From: a virus
Lineage: Duplodnaviria > Caudoviricetes
Strand: one strand, 5' to 3'
IMG/VR virus record: IMGVR_UViG_3300028603_000017
Location: 128,001-192,000 of that record
DNA: 64,000 nt
The position numbers and the translations under genes were made by a program. Below are positions 777 to 62,518 of this stretch, piece by piece; positions within the stretch are counted from its first letter, which is position 1, and each line of letters opens with the position of its first letter. The notes under the pieces are model-generated. The model was not told the DNA's origin. It saw only the letters and a program-made list of their open reading frames with translations, and made no database searches.

Positions 777-2835
777 ATGAGTGATTTCGCAGTTCCCTTT
801 AATATTTATCTACTAAACCTCACTCCTGATAAGTTAGCAGGTATGATACCTGTGACTTCTTTGGATATATTTGAGGGTATGTCCAGGAATTTACATAATG
901 ACGGTCTTTTCTCTATACCTATCTTTGGTAGAATCGGCTCTCCAGCTCGCACAAGCCGATATAGCTACATCGATATCAAGGTACCAATATTTCACCCAAC
1001 AATATATCGATCTTTGCTACAACTCAAGAGTCTTTATGGAGAAATCTTACAAGGCAAATCTTACGCTATTTGGAATGATGAAGTAAAAGACTTTGTTAAA
1101 TCATCTCAGTTAGATGGTGAAACAGGGTTTGAGTTCTTTGTTACGCATTGGAAAGATATCGTCTTTGAGTCTAGACCGAGTGACTTAAGAGCTAAAAATA
1201 TTGAGCTAATCGATAAGTACAAAGACATTGCTTTAATGGATAAAGTTATCGTAATGCCTGCTGGCTATAGAGATATTGAGATTGAAGACGATAGAATTAC
1301 CGTAAATGAAATCAACGATCTCTATAAAAAGCTCTTAAGAGTATCCAATACCATCTTACCTATTACAGTAAAAGACGATATTGAAATGCTCAATGGTGCT
1401 AGATACAGTATGCAAAATACATTCAATCAAATCTACGATATGATTGAGTCTATGATCAAAGGTAAGAAAAAGCTCATGATGGGTAAATGGGCTAGCCGTA
1501 AAATCTTTAACGGCACCAGAAACGTGATTACGTCTTCTGATATTCGCTCAGATGAATTAAATGCTCCCAATAACGTAGGTTTTAACGACACTATTTGTGG
1601 TCTATACCAATACATTAAAGCAACCCTGCCTTTAGCTATTGCTAAACTACGTACTGGTTTTCTAAGCAATGTCTTTGTATCTGCACAGTCACCTGCTTAC
1701 TTAACAGATAAAAAGACACTCAAGAAAGTAGAAGTTAAAATAGATAACGATGTCTTTGACAGATGGATGAGTGATGAAGGACTAGAAAAAGTCATTAGTC
1801 TATTTTCAGAAGAATCTATCAGACACGACTATTTAGAAGTCAATGATCACTATATTGGCTTAGTATATAAAGGACCTGGTGTCTTTAAATTCTTCCAAGA
1901 TATAGATGAGTTACCTGAAGAATATAGTAAGGACGATGTTTATCCGATTACTTTCACGGAACTCATTTACGGCTCTGTATACCATGACGCTCATTTATAC
2001 CCAGCTCTAGTGACACGGTATCCTGTCACTGGGTTTGGTAGTATCTATGTCTCTAATATCTATCTAAAGCCTACTCTTAAGGTAGAGAAAAGAGCTCCCT
2101 TAGGAGATGATTGGCAAATAGATCCCTATAAACCTATTGCTTATAACTTTCCTACTAAATCTGATTTCGTAAATGCGATGTCTCCTAGTCCGAGTAAATT
2201 ACAAAATCTCGGAGCTGATAATCGAATGGTATTTTCTTAATTTATTCATAGAACACTATGTTTAAAAGGTATGTTTACGTAAACATATTTGAAACTGTAG
2301 TGGGTTTCAAGAAAATCCAATCGTTTTGTCCTACCTTACAGTAATGTAAGGATAGAATCTCCTTTAATTGCTAGAAAGCCCTTAGAGCTTAACTACCACT
2401 GCGAGCAGTAATGCAAAGCGACAGCTCTACCTAATTGGTAAAGCCATGGTTTGAAAAGTGTTAAGATTGGGTAACCAGCAGCGAAGCTACCCTAATAGGT
2501 AGAACGTTCAACGATCAACCCTTTAGCAAGGTGTACACTCAAGTGAGTGGAAATGGGGAGCTACCTGTTATGCAGGTAGAAGATATGATCTACTCTATAT
2601 GGAAACATATAGCAGGCTATTGTGCCGGACTAAGATTAACGACCTTAGTTGAATACATAGGTTTGATGGAGATACTTGTTCACTAAATATTCTCTATTCT
2701 GATGAAAGTATAAGTGAGACTAGAAAATACATGCAATCTGCTAAGTATTACGTAGGCTCTAATGGTAAGATTAACTTTAGCGCTGAGACTGATACTACTA
2801 AATTCGTTTTACACAATCTAACATCGGATGTTTAA
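777..2835 (+). CDS. Virion RNA polymerase beta'-N subunit (RpoC-like, phiKZ gp180-like), spliced: exons 777-2219 and 2662-2835, 538 aa
   Basis: Motifs GLFSIPIFG, KGKKKLMMGKWASRKI and VTRYP. Exon 1 ends LGAD. Removing 2220-2661 joins FDGDTCSLNILYSDES...LTSDV*, restoring the catalytic ADFDGD in frame. Confidence 0.92.
2220..2661 (+). mobile_element. Group I intron 1 (442 nt, no homing endonuclease ORF)
   Basis: 5' exon ends in U (GAU) and the intron ends in G. Core elements: AATTGCTAGAAA (P), AACCAGCAG (Q), TTCAACGATCA (R), AAGATATGATC (S). Two hairpins between P7 and P3'. Excision restores DFDGD. Confidence 0.92.
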
Positions 2836-2836
2836 T

Positions 2837-5800
2837 ATGGCAGCTCCTGCTATACCCTTTGAGAGTTACTATAGAAAAAACGGCCTAAGATCTCCTCAGT
2901 ATCTGATGGCTCCTAGGATGCCTAGTATTGAAAGCTTCTTTTTCCCTAAAGACTCTATTCACCATTATGTTGTTTATGATGGTGTGTCTAAGCATCCTGC
3001 TAGTGATGAGTACTTTTACAGAGATATTCAAAAGAAGATCTTTGTACAACATATTCCTGATATCAAAGATAATAAAGGCTCTCCTAGAAAATTAGCTATT
3101 CCTGTGATGCCTATGATTAGGGAATTTCACATCAGGAATAAAAGGTTTAGATTACTAGAAAAGCTCTCTAGTGTCAAGGATGAAAATACTTTAGTTACAA
3201 TTAACTATGGTTTTGCTCCTGTAGGATACAAATACGTAAAGTCTTTTTATGCTAACTACTACAAGTGGTGGAATATTGAAAAGACACTTTGGAGTACTTT
3301 AGATAGCATTACCAAAGAAAGTAATCGACAAAACTTTATCTTTACCAACTTACCTAAGACTTTACCTAGTGTATCTCGTCTTAATATGTTTTCTGATACT
3401 TTTAATCAGGAGATGGTAAAGCGGTTTAATACACCCGAATCTCTATTTCTATTAGAGATGTGGAAGTGGCTATCTGCTGAGAATAGAGGTAATTCTATCA
3501 TTGGCAACATGGGTCATAACCAATTAAAGAAAATTAATATTGTCATACAAGAATCTGGACGATATATATTGGTTAATCTAGGTGAGTTAAATAGCTGGAG
3601 AGCAGAAACTACTGATGTACCAGAGCAAAAGATACGGATTGACTCTAGTGCTTTACAAAAGCGATTCCTAAGAATGTTGATGACATTAATGGAAAACCGC
3701 ACTGTAGTAGACGCTCAATTGGTAGATGATGAAGTAGATGGTAATATTCCAGATACACCTATCGATAGCGATCCAGACCTGAGTGATCTAGATAGTCTAG
3801 AAAAAGATACTACCACTCCCACATCTGCACCATATGTAGATACAGATGCAGATATGGTAGCTGGTAAAGGCGATTTTATCAATCTGGATGAGAAAGACAG
3901 TGAAGTTAAAGAATTAACCAAAGCTGAGAAAATCAATGAATTAATTGATAATCTGGATAATGACCTACAGGCATTAGAGATTATTGAAAATGAAAAAGAC
4001 AATATTCTACTGGATGAGGAAATAGAAGATAAGAAGATTTCTAAAGAAATCTCTATCAGTCATTCAGATAAAGCTATTGAATTTGATTTCTTTAATAAAG
4101 AACTCAATCCTGAAGACAGAATTGTTAATCTCTGTAATGAATTAGCTGACGATGGGTTAATGACAGCTAGTGAATATAGGCGTTTAACCAATAATGCTGA
4201 TAATTATAAACGCTTGCCTAGTCCGTACGATAGTGGAAAATCATTAGCTGAATTTGGTGAAATTAAACCAGAAGAGATAGCTATTACTGAATCTGCTAAA
4301 ACAGTAGACAGGAACACCATTATTGATAAGACCATGTTATCATCTAGTCTATTAGACTTTGATGAAAGATACATTAAAAATATCTTACCTAAAGATATTG
4401 TCAATATGGTAACAGCTGCCCAAAATGCTGGATTCATTATATCTAAATACGAAGTAGAGCCTATTGAAGATATTCTAGGTAAATACGAATCTCACACTGT
4501 TCGCATTGCTCCTATTCAAGGTCAACCTAGTACTCTACGATTTAAGATACCTAAGGTTGAGGAAGACGGTGTTTATGTTAGCTCAGGTATCCGCTATAGG
4601 CTTCGTAAACAGCGGTTTGACCTTCCTATTCGTAAGATATCTCCAGATCGTGTTGCTCTATCGTCCTACTATGGTAAAACTCTAGTTACTCGCAGCGATA
4701 AGAAAGTTAATGATTACGGAGCATGGCTATCTAAAAACATAATTGCCAAAGCTATTGATAATACTGATCCTAATGTGATCAACTTATCTGCTGGTGATGT
4801 ATTTGTTAACGATGTAAACTTACCTAGAAGTTATACAGCTATTTCAATGGCTATTAGAGGATTTACCTCTAATGGATTTAACTTTAACTTTGATTATAAT
4901 AATAGAGTTGAGTTCTTTGGTCAGGAAAACATTGACAAGTATGAAAAAAATGGCTATACATTAGTAGCAGATAATGCTACTAATGAGTTTTTGGTCATTG
5001 ATCAAAATAATGTTCTATATAAAGTAGCTAACGATACTTTAGATCCAGTAGGTTCTATTGAATCCTTTATTGGTTTAGATATTGCTAATGCTCCTGTAGA
5101 CTTTGCTCAAATTAAAGTATTTGGCAAAAATATACCTCTGGTATTAATATTGGGCTATATGTACGGATTAGAAAATCTAATCAATGTACTAAAAGCCGAT
5201 GTCCGTAGAGTCTCTAGTGGTCAAAGACAGAATCTGCAAGAACACGAATACGCTATTGCTTTCAGTGATGAAACTCTGATCTTTAGCAAAGATGACGAAT
5301 TAGCTGCTATGATATTCTCTGGTTTTAGAGAATATGCTAAACATATCAGAAATTATTCTGTTTATACTTTCGATAAACCTAACGTTTATTTGAATGTATT
5401 AGAATCTAATGGAATTGGTATTAGGTACTTAAGAGAAGTAGATTTAATGGACAAAATGTTCGTTGATCCTATTACTAAAGAAATTTTAGTAGAGATGAAA
5501 GAACCTACTACTTTCAGAGGCTTGATTGTCAGAGCTGCCCAGCTGCTACTCAAAGACGCTCATCCGGATGCTTTAGATATGCAGTTCATGCGTATTAAGG
5601 GCTATGAGAGATTTGCTGGTGCTATATATGCTGAGTTAGTTAATTCCGTTAGAGAACATAACTCTAAAGCTGGTAAAGCTAATCAACAGATTGAATTACA
5701 TCCTTATGCTGTTTGGAAGAGGATTACGGCAGATCCTAGTATTAACTTAGTATCTGATATCAATCCGATTGAAAACTTAAAACAACAAGAAGCAGTTACT

Positions 5801-59925: not shown

Positions 59926-59939
59926 AACGACATACATAG

Positions 59940-59975
59940 CTCCCACTAGCCATTAGGCTAGTGGGAGCTATGCTG
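59940..59975. repeat. Bidirectional terminator, identical copy of 12927-12962
   Basis: 36-nt exact match. Confidence 0.9.
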
Positions 59976-59980
59976 TTTAT

Positions 59981-60496
59981 TTATTTTTTTGTAGCTGAAT
60001 TGATTTGATTTGTAATTTCTTGAGCTTTCTTAGCTTCCTTATGTAGTATATTTTCTATTTTCTCAAAGATAATAGTAATATACTCTCTAGGATATGCTAA
60101 GAATTCATGGAGTTTTAAACCCGTGTGTTTAAATACTTCTTTTTCAAAATAGTGATCTATTGTAAAATATAAATCACTACTCTTACAAATATCTTCTGCC
60201 TCGTGCAGAGCTACCGCTGCCAATGGTCTGGATTTGTCTCCAGAGCTCACTCCACTTAAATGATCATAAATACCAAAGTAGGTTTCATAAATATCAGTTA
60301 AAGCTATTTTAATATCAATATAACTGGTTTTAGGTAATTTCTCAGCTAACCTAGATATCTCTTCACTGATATTAATAAACTCTTTGGTAATTCCAGCATC
60401 AGTTTTTATAGACTGAATACCAAATTCATGATCATTTATATGTTTTTTTAGCGGTTTGTTATCTTGATGACGCGCTGCACGAGAGGGATAAAAAAA
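59981..60496 (-). CDS. Start-less frame (phiKZ gp76-region), probably entered by -1 frameshift from the upstream gene
   Basis: The frame is open about 85 codons upstream of the track's GTG (60250) with no ATG/GTG/TTG, reaching back across the T7 run at 60490-60496. Confidence 0.65.
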   Translation of the reverse strand, partial: FFYPSRAARHQDNKPLKKHINDHEFGIQSIKTDAGITKEFINISEEISRLAEKLPKTSYIDIKIALTDIYETYFGIYDHLSGVSSGDKSRPLAAVALHEAEDICKSSDLYFTIDHYFEKEVFKHTGLKLHEFLAYPREYITIIFEKIENILHKEAKKAQEITNQINSATKK

Positions 60497-61977
60497 GTAT
60501 TGTAAACATCAATTGGAATAATGTTTACAAATTTAGGTAGAGTATTACCAGCTTCATCTTGAGGTTTACCACAAGACGGACAATCGTAGCTAGGCACACC
60601 AATTAAGCTGATGACAGTATCATCAATATAGTCACGAATCTTTTTGATGAATTCTTCACGCACATAATCATCAGAAGACAAAGAACCGATAATAGCTTCA
60701 ATGGTTTCTTTCTTCTTAACTGTGTTGGTATCTATCTCGACTTCTTCTACCCAATGAGAGTATTGCTGTAAAGCTGAAGCTTTAGCGCTATTGAGAATAT
60801 GTCTATTTCTCTCATTGATATTGGTAGACTCACTAAAGCTGGCAGTAATTGTTTCAACAATACTATTAATCCAGCTAGTGCCTTCATTAATCCATTCTAG
60901 TGCAGTAGGTACTTTGAGTTTAAATGAGATTTCACTCTCATCCTTTTTGATCTTAACCAGACGAGGTTGGTTATTGAGCAGCTCTTTACGATATCTAATA
61001 ACGTCTTCTTCAGTTACAGAGCTGGCTGATCGATTGAGCATCAAAGATTTTTGCCAAGCATTTAAAGGCACTTTATTGATCCATAAAAGCTTGGATAGAT
61101 TAATAAGTTCAGTAGCAATATGGTTGCATTCGCCAGGATTATGCACACAAGCTCTAGAATATTTAAATCCATTAGGCCAAATAGCGCAAGCTATACCCCA
61201 AATTAAGATAGGCACATCATGAGAATAGATAAACTCACGGATGTCTTTATTGGTTTTGATGCTATAACTGTGAATATTGTTTAAAGCAAAATCTAATAGA
61301 CGATTGACAAAGAAAACAACTTGGTTACTGAAAGCCAAACCATAAGTAGCTCTGCCTAATTCTATCTTGTCTTGTGTAATTTGTCTATGTAGCTCTAGAA
61401 TTTCATTTTCACTAGGAGCTTTTAGTGTAACCCAAAAACCTGAGTGAAATAAAGGAATCTGAACATAACCGCCTAGACCAAAAGCTGCTTTGACCATCAT
61501 CAAAGCTTTTTCACCTTCAATTTCTTGATTAGAAACTGACTTTAGTCTAGAAGGACGAATACCTAGTTTATCACCATTGACTTCCAGATGTTGAACAAAG
61601 TCAGCATCTGGATCAGATAGCGGTTTGGTAAATTGAGAATCATAACTAGCAGTTTGTGCACCATGAGAAACGGTTTGTGCCCATTCTACAGTATCGTCTT
61701 CGTTATTGAGGACCTTACCTTCTAGTCTAGGAGGAATATTGTCATTGTAGTCAGATGGACCAATAACTGTTTCTAGTAATTCATGTTTAGATTCATCTAC
61801 GCTAGAGAAGATTTGTTCTTCTTGAGCAAACTTCTTGGTTTTAATAGGTAGGTCTAAAGGTTTAGACTCATTAACAGGTTGTTCTACAGGCGTAGATTCT
61901 TTAGATTCATATTGAATCTCATCTACTGGATCTGGAATAATGTCTTTATTTTCTTCACTCATTGGTTTGGCTTTCAA
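60448..61977 (-). CDS. phiKZ gp77-like protein, candidate tail/baseplate assembly chaperone
   Basis: 509 aa with CVHNPGEC and CPSC Zn motifs, ending ...IPIDVYNTFFIPL... Confidence 0.7.
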   Translation of the reverse strand: MKAKPMSEENKDIIPDPVDEIQYESKESTPVEQPVNESKPLDLPIKTKKFAQEEQIFSSVDESKHELLETVIGPSDYNDNIPPRLEGKVLNNEDDTVEWAQTVSHGAQTASYDSQFTKPLSDPDADFVQHLEVNGDKLGIRPSRLKSVSNQEIEGEKALMMVKAAFGLGGYVQIPLFHSGFWVTLKAPSENEILELHRQITQDKIELGRATYGLAFSNQVVFFVNRLLDFALNNIHSYSIKTNKDIREFIYSHDVPILIWGIACAIWPNGFKYSRACVHNPGECNHIATELINLSKLLWINKVPLNAWQKSLMLNRSASSVTEEDVIRYRKELLNNQPRLVKIKKDESEISFKLKVPTALEWINEGTSWINSIVETITASFSESTNINERNRHILNSAKASALQQYSHWVEEVEIDTNTVKKKETIEAIIGSLSSDDYVREEFIKKIRDYIDDTVISLIGVPSYDCPSCGKPQDEAGNTLPKFVNIIPIDVYNTFFIPLVQRVIKITNR

Positions 61978-62518
61978 CAGTTATTTCTATAGCTTGTTCG
62001 GGTTGCTCTATAATAACTGCGTCAGATACAACATTAGGATCAGTAATACTTTCTTTGTTTTGTTCAGCCTGCACAATCTCTTGCACTTTAGCAACAGCTT
62101 GATCGTAGTGCTGTGTAATGGTTTGGACATTAGGCAGGATAACGCCTTCGAACTTTACCTTAAAAGAATTATAAGCTTCAATAAAGGTAAGAGATTGGAT
62201 AAAGTCATCGTCATCTACAGCTTTGCCAGACCTGTGTTTATGACCAGCAGCAATTTCTTCTAGCTCTTGATTCATTTGAGCAATATCTGCTTGCATACAC
62301 CGAATCAAATCAGCTGTTAGCTTAGGATTTTCCATGAAGTTACCTATCTTCTCTACTGAGAATAAATAAAGTATTTGTGCAGGTACTTCTTGGAGCATTG
62401 CTTTATTAGCACGATAAACATCCATGAGATCATCCCATGGATTAGCTTCTCTTTTAAATTGTTCTAATTCTTTTTTGGCTTCGTCTCTAGCAAGACGGGC
62501 AGCAGATTTTTTCGTCAT
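61955..62518 (-). CDS. Hypothetical helical protein (187 aa)
   Basis: AGGA RBS; coupled to the next gene. Confidence 0.75.
   Translation of the reverse strand: MTKKSAARLARDEAKKELEQFKREANPWDDLMDVYRANKAMLQEVPAQILYLFSVEKIGNFMENPKLTADLIRCMQADIAQMNQELEEIAAGHKHRSGKAVDDDDFIQSLTFIEAYNSFKVKFEGVILPNVQTITQHYDQAVAKVQEIVQAEQNKESITDPNVVSDAVIIEQPEQAIEITVESQTNE

Follow-up and report, generated by a model that had tools for sequence, protein, structure and literature searches.

Does the gene for a phiKZ gp77-like protein, which lies on the minus strand of a 64,000-nucleotide stretch of Caudoviricetes DNA from an uncultured nucleus-forming giant phage (IMG/VR record IMGVR_UViG_3300028603_000017, positions 128,001 to 192,000; this whole stretch is called the window), give one protein or two? 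The open reading frame (ORF) of this gene carries near its 3' end a run of seven T that is in register with its codons as a T_TTT_TTT heptamer, and the -1 frame is open from this run across the stop of the gene and far beyond it. The arrangement was followed in 137 distinct loci, and the sequence evidence points to what is probably a programmed -1 ribosomal frameshift site in this core gene, from which products of ~500 and ~660 amino acids (aa) would be made. A preliminary description of the window had proposed two such products with a common N-terminus and a -1 shift at U UUU UUU, and this proposal is backed here by the conserved heptamer, the open -1 frame, the scarcity of start codons and a constraint on synonymous sites.

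The site and its two reading frames

The features of the locus, with the basis of each in brackets, are given below.

60448..61977, minus strand: frame-0 gene, homologue of phiKZ gp77 (ORF list and translation)
60490..60496, minus strand: slippery heptamer T_TTT_TTT, U UUU UUU in the mRNA (sequence; in register with frame 0)
60448..60489, minus strand: overlap zone, made of the last 13 frame-0 codons, IPLVQRVIKITNR, and the stop (translations)
59981..60490, minus strand: -1 frame extension of 169 codons and TAA (translation)

The site is read in frame 0 as ACT TTT TTT ATC, where the T7 run at 60496..60490 (A7 on the plus strand) supplies the Phe codons of residues 495-496. The -1 frame is closed by a TGA at 60509-60511, four codons ahead of the two TTT codons; after this TGA it reads YPSRAARHQDNKPLKKHINDHEFG... 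and stays open over 169 codons up to a TAA at 59981-59983. The overlap zone reads YPSRAARHQDNKPL in the -1 frame. The earliest ATG, GTG or TTG of the -1 ORF is a GTG at 60250 (codon 81), downstream of the conserved YETYFGIYDH motif, and this GTG is not credible as a start because a GGAG adjoins it with the spacer absent. What the preliminary description had stated on the sequence, namely the heptamer, its register, the upstream TGA, the 169-codon -1 ORF and its ~80 start-free codons, was found to hold throughout. The long ORFs of the window contain 50 in-frame X_XXY_YYZ heptamers, and that at 60490-60496 is unique in having a near frame-0 stop together with a -1 frame open for at least 100 codons beyond. 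The arrangement of the slip site exceeds chance.

The C-terminal part of the gp77-like protein contains a CPxCG zinc ribbon (CPSCGKPQ), followed by IPIDV..FF and a terminal helix. The ORF terminates with ...NTFFIPLVQRVIKITNR and the stop, and the longer tail from CPSCGKPQ onwards reads ...IIPIDVYNTFFIPLVQRVIKITNR up to the same stop. Its length is 509 aa when counted from the TTG at 61977 on the minus strand, as in the ORF list. A database copy of 504 aa, which matches 99% of the query identically, begins at the ATG at 61962, five codons in, and this ATG is more likely the start of the gp77-like gene than the TTG. With this ATG as its start, the gene shares 8 nt, at the stop, with the upstream gp78-like gene (61955..62518), a hint of translational coupling between the two.

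The structures of both parts were predicted with AlphaFold2 (AF2). The model of the gp77-like protein has a predicted local distance difference test score (pLDDT) of 87.5 and a predicted template modelling score (pTM) of 0.86, and the slip site falls within its terminal helix 491-508. In the model of the extension (pLDDT 87.3) the residues 1-20, which correspond to the overlap, are poorly ordered (pLDDT 50-68) and are followed by a beta-hairpin of residues 25-38 (pLDDT ~90), which precedes all start codons, a helical domain and a C-terminal helix of 34 residues (135-168). On these models a fusion would consist of gp77 less its last 13 residues, a flexible linker, which the overlap stretch is predicted to form, and an extra domain.

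Conservation of the run and of the -1 frame

The loci were taken from annotated phage genomes, IMG/VR and metagenome contigs by alignment-based scans (a single-protein query found no loci) and consisted of a first set of 83 and a replication set of 54, with GC contents of 29-62%. In the DNA-level comparison the nearest relatives were ~43% identical in protein, and protein identity among the loci ranges over 20-43%, with hosts from many phyla. The T-run was found on the conserved Phe-Phe, 10-23 codons upstream of the frame-0 stop, in the 137 loci; its length is 7 in 76 of them, 8 in 28, 9 in 6, 6 in 17 and 5 in 10. An in-register T_TTT_TTT, T_TTT_TTC or T_TTT_TTA occupies the same Phe-Phe in 120 of the 137 loci, so that the search for the heptamer in homologues, which the preliminary description had suggested, came out in favour of its proposal. 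Among named phages, the site reads TCA ACT TTT TTT ACT in phiKZ, has T7 in 201phi2-1 and Miami and T8 in RAY and Goslar, and reads GTT TTT TTC in SPN3US-like phages and TAT TTT TTC in Vibrio phage pir03, whereas PhiPA3 and FLC9 have G_TTT_TTT only.

Codon use shows selection on the T-run at the level of nucleotides. In the 41 loci with a GC content of at least 0.5, the other Phe codons of the gene are TTC in 504 and TTT in 107 cases. The first Phe codon of the site is TTT in 82 of the 83 loci of the first set, and the upstream ORFs of all these 83 loci contain only four other T-runs of T6 or longer. Position X of the heptamer, directly ahead of the first Phe codon, holds T in 76/83 loci, although the residue encoded there varies between T, L, V, I, A and N, and position Z, the final base, can be either T or C.

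In every one of the 137 loci the -1 frame stays open from the run past the frame-0 stop; the +1 frame passes that stop in 52. For equally long windows taken from other parts of these genes, the probability of an open -1 frame is 0.35, or 0.09 in AT-rich loci. Without exception the downstream ORF uses the -1 frame, and it extends over 147-181 codons from the run. When 64 of the extensions were aligned (alignment A2), a Phe was found at the position of window residue 23 in 62, and 43 of the 64 aligned loci have no ATG, GTG or TTG between the upstream -1 stop and this near-invariant Phe. The replication set gave two further cases, one locus (L104) without a canonical start anywhere in the -1 ORF and one (L155) with its earliest start at codon 137.

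A constraint on synonymous sites was seen directly after the heptamer. The third positions of the first and third codons are C in 78% and 71% against a background of 26%, and in 79% and 60% against 15% in the AT-rich loci, by a test made without phylogenetic correction. These C bases encode Pro (91/119) and Arg (60/119) of the -1 frame, so the -1 frame carries information from its first codons past the run.

Proposed entry into the -1 frame

From this architecture we infer that slippage takes place on the run and that it is ribosomal. Most ribosomes would read ACU UUU UUU AUC in frame 0 and stop 13 codons on, giving the ~500-aa product. A minority, holding tRNA-Phe in both the P and the A site, would move back one base at U_UUU_UUU, read UAU CCC UCU CGU... 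and pass the frame-0 stop to add 169 residues. The long product of ~660 aa would have its junction between ...NTFF and YPSR..., and the last 13 residues of the gp77 terminal helix would be exchanged for a linker of ~20 residues and a folded domain of beta-hairpin and helices with a long helix at its end. The efficiency is expected to be low, of the order of a few per cent, because the site has neither a conserved downstream RNA structure nor an upstream Shine-Dalgarno (SD)-like stimulator; such an unstimulated shift of low efficiency, like that of lambda G/GT, would fix the ratio between the short and the long product.

Several observations weigh against this frameshift reading. The counts over the 137 loci are phylogenetically non-independent. 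The 3' RNA structure at the site of the window has a minimum free energy of -6.1 kcal/mol (z = +0.95) and is not stable, the folds over the 83 loci have a mean z of +0.46 with no trend, and SD-like 4-mers upstream of the site are present in 8/83 loci against 16% of control windows and thus are not enriched; with no stimulator found, the efficiency could be very low. In 17 of the 137 loci the full heptamer is replaced by G_TTT_TTT, G_TTT_TTC or T5 only, most of these are still without a start codon, and the -1 frame must be reached there in another way. RP31 (an ATG in TGATG) and RSF1 and LucasX (GTG) have plausible starts of their own close to the frame-0 stop. Klebsiella phage FBKp24 (MW394391, locus 2800-3335) has lost the Phe-Phe and the T-run, and its downstream gene begins at an ATG of its own, so the extension domain is able to function unfused. 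Among 103 gp77 relatives of 463-593 aa not one in-frame fusion came up, and a search for such a fusion among longer proteins with the extension domain, which is weak evidence, also gave none.

Some details of these departing loci may be added. The two clades with T5 only (L054, L062, L064, L068 and L069 from IMG/VR, with ~42% GC, and L115 and L144 from metagenomes) have sites reading CTT TTT ATT ATC or GTT TTT ACA; the long -1 ORF is retained in them, and a canonical start before the conserved Phe is absent, as checked in the aligned L054, L062 and L068. A start codon was present in 5/9 loci without the heptamer against 16/55 with it, by a hand count of few loci. The FBKp24 downstream protein is without the N-terminal hairpin part, and this phage is the sole relative of such a natural 'unfused' kind among those checked. 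The BFVD matches of 686-687 aa, considered as fusions, were found to be N-terminal expansions instead (checked for phiEaH2 gp222 only).

The ~25 bases 3' of the T7 run are richer in GC than the window (37% GC), as the preliminary description had noted. As a stimulator of slippage these bases were ruled out by the window fold and the folds of the 83 loci, and they are better explained by double coding, that is, by the Pro/Arg constraint.

Other explanations were weighed against the ribosomal frameshift. Since homopolymers are error-prone, the layout may be due to a sequencing or assembly error in the run, or to a recent frameshift that split one gene or beheaded the downstream one, and one added T in AATTTGG at ~60423 (T3 to T4) would bring an ATG into frame. 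Metagenomes from 12 studies (landfill, wastewater, sludge and compost) contain the window stretch, and contigs from four runs of four studies (landfill, wastewater and sludge) span 60354-60700 with zero indels and are identical in length across the region. Of four substitutions in the -1 ORF, three are at third positions and synonymous in the -1 frame, and among these three is one at codon 47, upstream of any start codon. The same frame layout is present in the 137 divergent loci, finished isolate genomes included, and an in-frame fused homologue was not found. The T3 to T4 error with its ATG-started ORF is ruled out by the four concordant assemblies and the conservation; the homopolymer error that the preliminary description had named as a danger is seen in none of the independent assemblies, and error or decay is effectively refuted and hardly conceivable as an explanation. 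There might also be no fusion at all, the downstream ORF being a separate gene that is translated by termination-reinitiation or from a non-canonical start (ATA, ATT or CTG) near the frame-0 stop, with the T-run kept for the Phe-Phe structure or as a polymerase pause. The annotated starts at or beside the upstream stop in RP31, RSF1, LucasX and 201phi2-1, the free-standing gene of FBKp24, the phrog_12109 profile, which begins about at the frame-0 stop, and the near-cognate codons that exist (in the window, ATA at codon 18) are in line with a separate gene. Left unexplained by it are the -1 frame that is open from run to stop in all loci where 35% are expected, its closure just upstream of the run in AT-rich genomes, the TTT at the site in genomes that otherwise favour TTC 5:1, the T as wobble base before the Phe codons in 92% of loci, the conserved -1 Pro/Arg at frame-0 synonymous sites, and a downstream gene that is never in the +1 frame and never separated by a gap; we regard it as very unlikely.

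Slippage could also be transcriptional, the phage (non-virion) or host RNA polymerase adding one U on the T7-T9 tract, which would give the same fusion with the same NTFFYPSR junction. Slippage-prone tracts include the A9 of Thermus dnaX, the T9 of Shigella mxiE, those of insertion sequence (IS) elements and the editing sites of paramyxoviruses and Ebola virus. The pure homopolymer of 7-9 T in 108 of the 137 loci is in the length range of such tracts, a ribosomal stimulator was not found, the conserved -1 frame and the absence of start codons fit equally well, and most genes of these phages are transcribed by an unusual multisubunit RNA polymerase. Against polymerase slippage, the run ends in C (T_TTT_TTC) in 46/137 loci, 11 of which have six T's with X_XXY_YYZ still perfect, and the base under selection is the one 5' of the Phe codons and not the one 3' of them, an asymmetry that selection on run length would not give. 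The T5-T6 tracts of 27 loci are short for polymerase stuttering, and RNA-library contigs show T7 with no length variants, although contigs drop minor variants. Sequence alone cannot separate ribosomal from transcriptional slippage; we favour the ribosome because conservation extends to the register and the 5' base but not to the 3' base, and because 11 loci keep a perfect heptamer with six T's, and we consider a polymerase origin unlikely.

Homologues, probable role and comparison with known systems

The gp77-like protein matched 230 phage records by tblastn, every one with <60% identity. The matches include phiKZ-like phages, PhiPA3, 201phi2-1, RAY, Ea35-70, Goslar and SPN3US-like phages, as well as jumbo phages of Vibrio, Ralstonia, Xanthomonas and Burkholderia and a Bacillus phage; the closest protein relatives have 83-48% identity, and megablast of the region against phages gave zero matches. 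The protein matches phrog_4585 with E = 6e-110. Its phiKZ homologue is PHIKZ077, in a block of gp75 helicase, small ORFs, gp76.4, gp77, gp78, gp79 and gp80, and the order in the window is identical, which bears out the earlier gp77/gp76 identification. The window neighbours of the gene are a gp75-like helicase, small membrane ORFs, and gp78-like and gp79-like genes. The gp77 gene is the core gene cg18 of Chimalliviridae, listed as a hypothetical protein among 72 core genes (PMC10299810).

The extension has homologues in phiKZ gp76.4, PhiPA3 gp073, 201phi2-1 gp135, RAY gp266 and Goslar gp82, and its residues 15-169 match phrog_12109 (profile of 147 positions). The tblastn matches of the -1 ORF fall downstream of gp77 homologues; those in FLC9, RP12, RP31 and FLC1-1B begin at extension residue 1 and cross the stop of the upstream gene and the 'intergenic' gap. 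Homology of the downstream frame from 60250 only, which the preliminary description had considered, was not observed, as it begins at about residues 15-23 of the extension. In phiKZ (NC_004629 71442-71903) a -1 stop lies three codons ahead of the slip site and is followed by a -1 ORF of ~165 codons. The annotation of gp76.4 covers only the last 80 of these codons and leaves a 218-nt gap to gp77 unannotated; in the -1 frame this gap is coding, with the conserved GH...FG and EAY...Y motifs. PhiPA3 gp073 appears to be annotated from a Met within the conserved H...FG motif, the annotation of RAY gp266 reaches 135 nt back into gp267, and the extension homologues in BFVD have annotated lengths of 74-182 aa. 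In Bacillus phage AgentSmith (MW749006, locus 2761-4913; 200 kb) the site reads GTT TTT TTA with a -1 ORF of ~165 codons, and one short ORF only (4680-4913) is annotated downstream of the gp77 homologue; the site therefore extends beyond phages of Gram-negative hosts.

One further feature was noted past the end of the -1 ORF.

59939..59968, strand not assigned: GC-rich hairpin with a 13-bp stem and a 4-nt loop (sequence)

The stem of this hairpin is perfect, its loop is TAAT, and it lies 13 nt past the -1 ORF stop, between convergent gene ends. Independent assemblies break exactly at the hairpin and run on into at least two different flanks; it is therefore a repeated element found at several places in the phage genome. 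Transcription of the gp78-gp77-extension unit likely stops at this hairpin, which would serve as a bidirectional terminator.

A frameshift, slippage or recoding event in phiKZ gp77 or its homologues was not found in the literature accessible without subscription, including the core-genome paper, a 2025 Annual Review, a 2026 jumbo-phage review and a Goslar structure preprint. Mentions of 'gp77' in the literature refer to the numbering of other phages. Frameshifting as a class of mechanism is well known, and the closest functional analogue is the conserved G/GT frameshift.

The role of the pair was approached through remote similarity. Fold search of gp77 in BFVD returned its homologues first and then matches that include, among ranks 19-46, proteins named T4-like baseplate hub subunit or assembly protein (E 6e-5 to 4e-2, TM ~0.5 of target). 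PF12322 (T4_baseplate), on which T4 gp26 and gp51 score 216 and 178 bits, was sub-threshold in 3/51 relatives (best E = 0.0058), and in the ESM Atlas 24/30 feature hits fall in a cluster set whose best cluster has PF12322 on 24% of its members. When alignment A1 was compared with T4 gp26 by hhalign, 27 columns around ...VP.CPxCG were aligned with a probability of 21%. The PDB fold searches gave no significant or usable match for gp77, either by Foldseek or in a wide search (best Z 5.6 over 44-50 residues), and brought up no solved structure of the family; for the extension they gave nothing usable, the best match (Z 5.2) being on the terminal helix only. In the structural comparison that the preliminary description had suggested, no significant similarity to tail chaperones came up, and the resemblance to gp26/gp51 is remote.

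These matches suggest that gp77 is probably a remote, enlarged assembly factor of the gp26/gp51 type (PF12322) and that, judged from remote similarity, the gp77 pair most likely acts in baseplate-hub or tail assembly. T4 gp26 and gp51 are hub-assembly chaperones, and gp51 is needed for assembly and absent from the particle (PMC3004832). The notes on 201phi2-1 gp136 and gp135 are without the mark 'identified using mass spectrometry', which gp138 and gp139 have, and gp81 and gp82 are unmentioned in the paper on the Goslar virion by cryo-electron microscopy. Counting against the assignment, Pfam gave zero families at E <= 1 for the gp77-like protein and the extension of the window, and so no PF12322, and the similarity on which the function is assigned is remote throughout.

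It is conceivable, and we put it forward tentatively, that an ancient -1 frameshift in cg18 provides every nucleus-forming jumbo phage, and at least one jumbo phage of Bacillus, with a hub or tail chaperone pair in a fixed ratio, of the gp26/gp51 lineage and not that of G/GT. If true, chaperone stoichiometry by frameshifting would have arisen independently at least twice in tailed phages, and the 'missing' frameshifted chaperone of giant myoviruses with T4-like baseplates would have been hidden in the phiKZ annotation gap since 2002. The conserved frameshift rule of tail assembly would then reach these giant phages through a different protein family. With the frameshift, the hypothetical protein cg18 would gain a second, unannotated product and a testable role in hub or tail assembly. 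The annotation of the region would be corrected in model phages (phiKZ gp76.4, PhiPA3 gp073 and RAY gp266), in which existing proteomics data can test the two-product reading. The extension was missed by gene callers and core-genome analyses, and it is a useful case for recoding-aware annotation of jumbo-phage metagenomes.

Among bacterial-type -1 frameshifts, E. coli dnaX (tau/gamma) and IS transposases resemble the gp77 site in a homopolymeric-like heptamer and in the simultaneous slippage of P- and A-site tRNAs that is proposed for it. For high efficiency these sites rely on an upstream SD-like element and a downstream hairpin, whereas at the gp77 site neither was found or conserved, and the dnaX shift truncates its protein whereas the gp77 shift would extend it. 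In Thermus dnaX, Shigella mxiE and potyvirus P3N-PIPO, too, two overlapping frames meet at a homopolymer of 7-9 residues, and the protein outcome would be the same. Unlike such transcriptional slippage sites, the gp77 site conserves register and the 5' base, has T or C as its 3' base and keeps the heptamer with six T's in several relatives.

T4 gp26 shares with gp77 the C-terminal VP.CPxCG zinc-ribbon stretch, with a hydrophobic strand ahead of the ribbon, at the hhalign probability given above, and for T4 gene 26, too, the annotation gives two products (26 and, nested in it, 26'). The 26' product comes from internal initiation in the same frame, whereas the long product of gp77 would come from a frameshift; gp77 is twice the length of T4 gp26 or gp51, and the homology is remote and unproven. 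We know of no frameshift in T4 gp26 or gp51. The T4 genome (NC_000866 112677-117228) has the uvsW helicase, small ORFs and genes 25, 26 (with the nested 26') and 51 in this order, and the jumbo-phage order of gp75 helicase, small ORFs, gp76.4, gp77 and gp78 resembles it. The two orders may reflect an old shared neighbourhood around a PF12322-type gene.

The pair had been labelled as G/GT-type in the preliminary description, and this label did not stand. The gp77 protein has ~500 aa against ~140 for lambda G, its heptamer is U_UUU_UUY against G_GGA_AAG, and it sits in the block of gp75 helicase, gp78, gp79 and virion RNA polymerase, outside the tube/tape-measure interval of G/GT. No significant similarity to tail assembly chaperone (TAC) families was found, Phage_TAC_12 being matched in 1/51 relatives (E = 0.05) and the HK97 chaperone 2ob9 by Foldseek with E = 0.2 and a probability of 0.33. 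The conserved tail-assembly-chaperone frameshift of long-tailed phages was reportedly described by Xu, Hendrix and Duda in 2004. Like lambda G/GT, the gp77 layout has a probable -1 shift site of the form X_XXY_YYZ near the 3' end of what is probably a tail-morphogenesis gene, and its gene architecture is that of a short major and a C-terminally extended minor product with a common N-terminus. In both systems a strong RNA stimulator is not involved, the feature is conserved among very divergent phages whose sequences are not, and the products are probably absent from the virion. A functional analogy of the gp77 pair to lambda G/GT, reached with an unrelated protein, is thus plausible.

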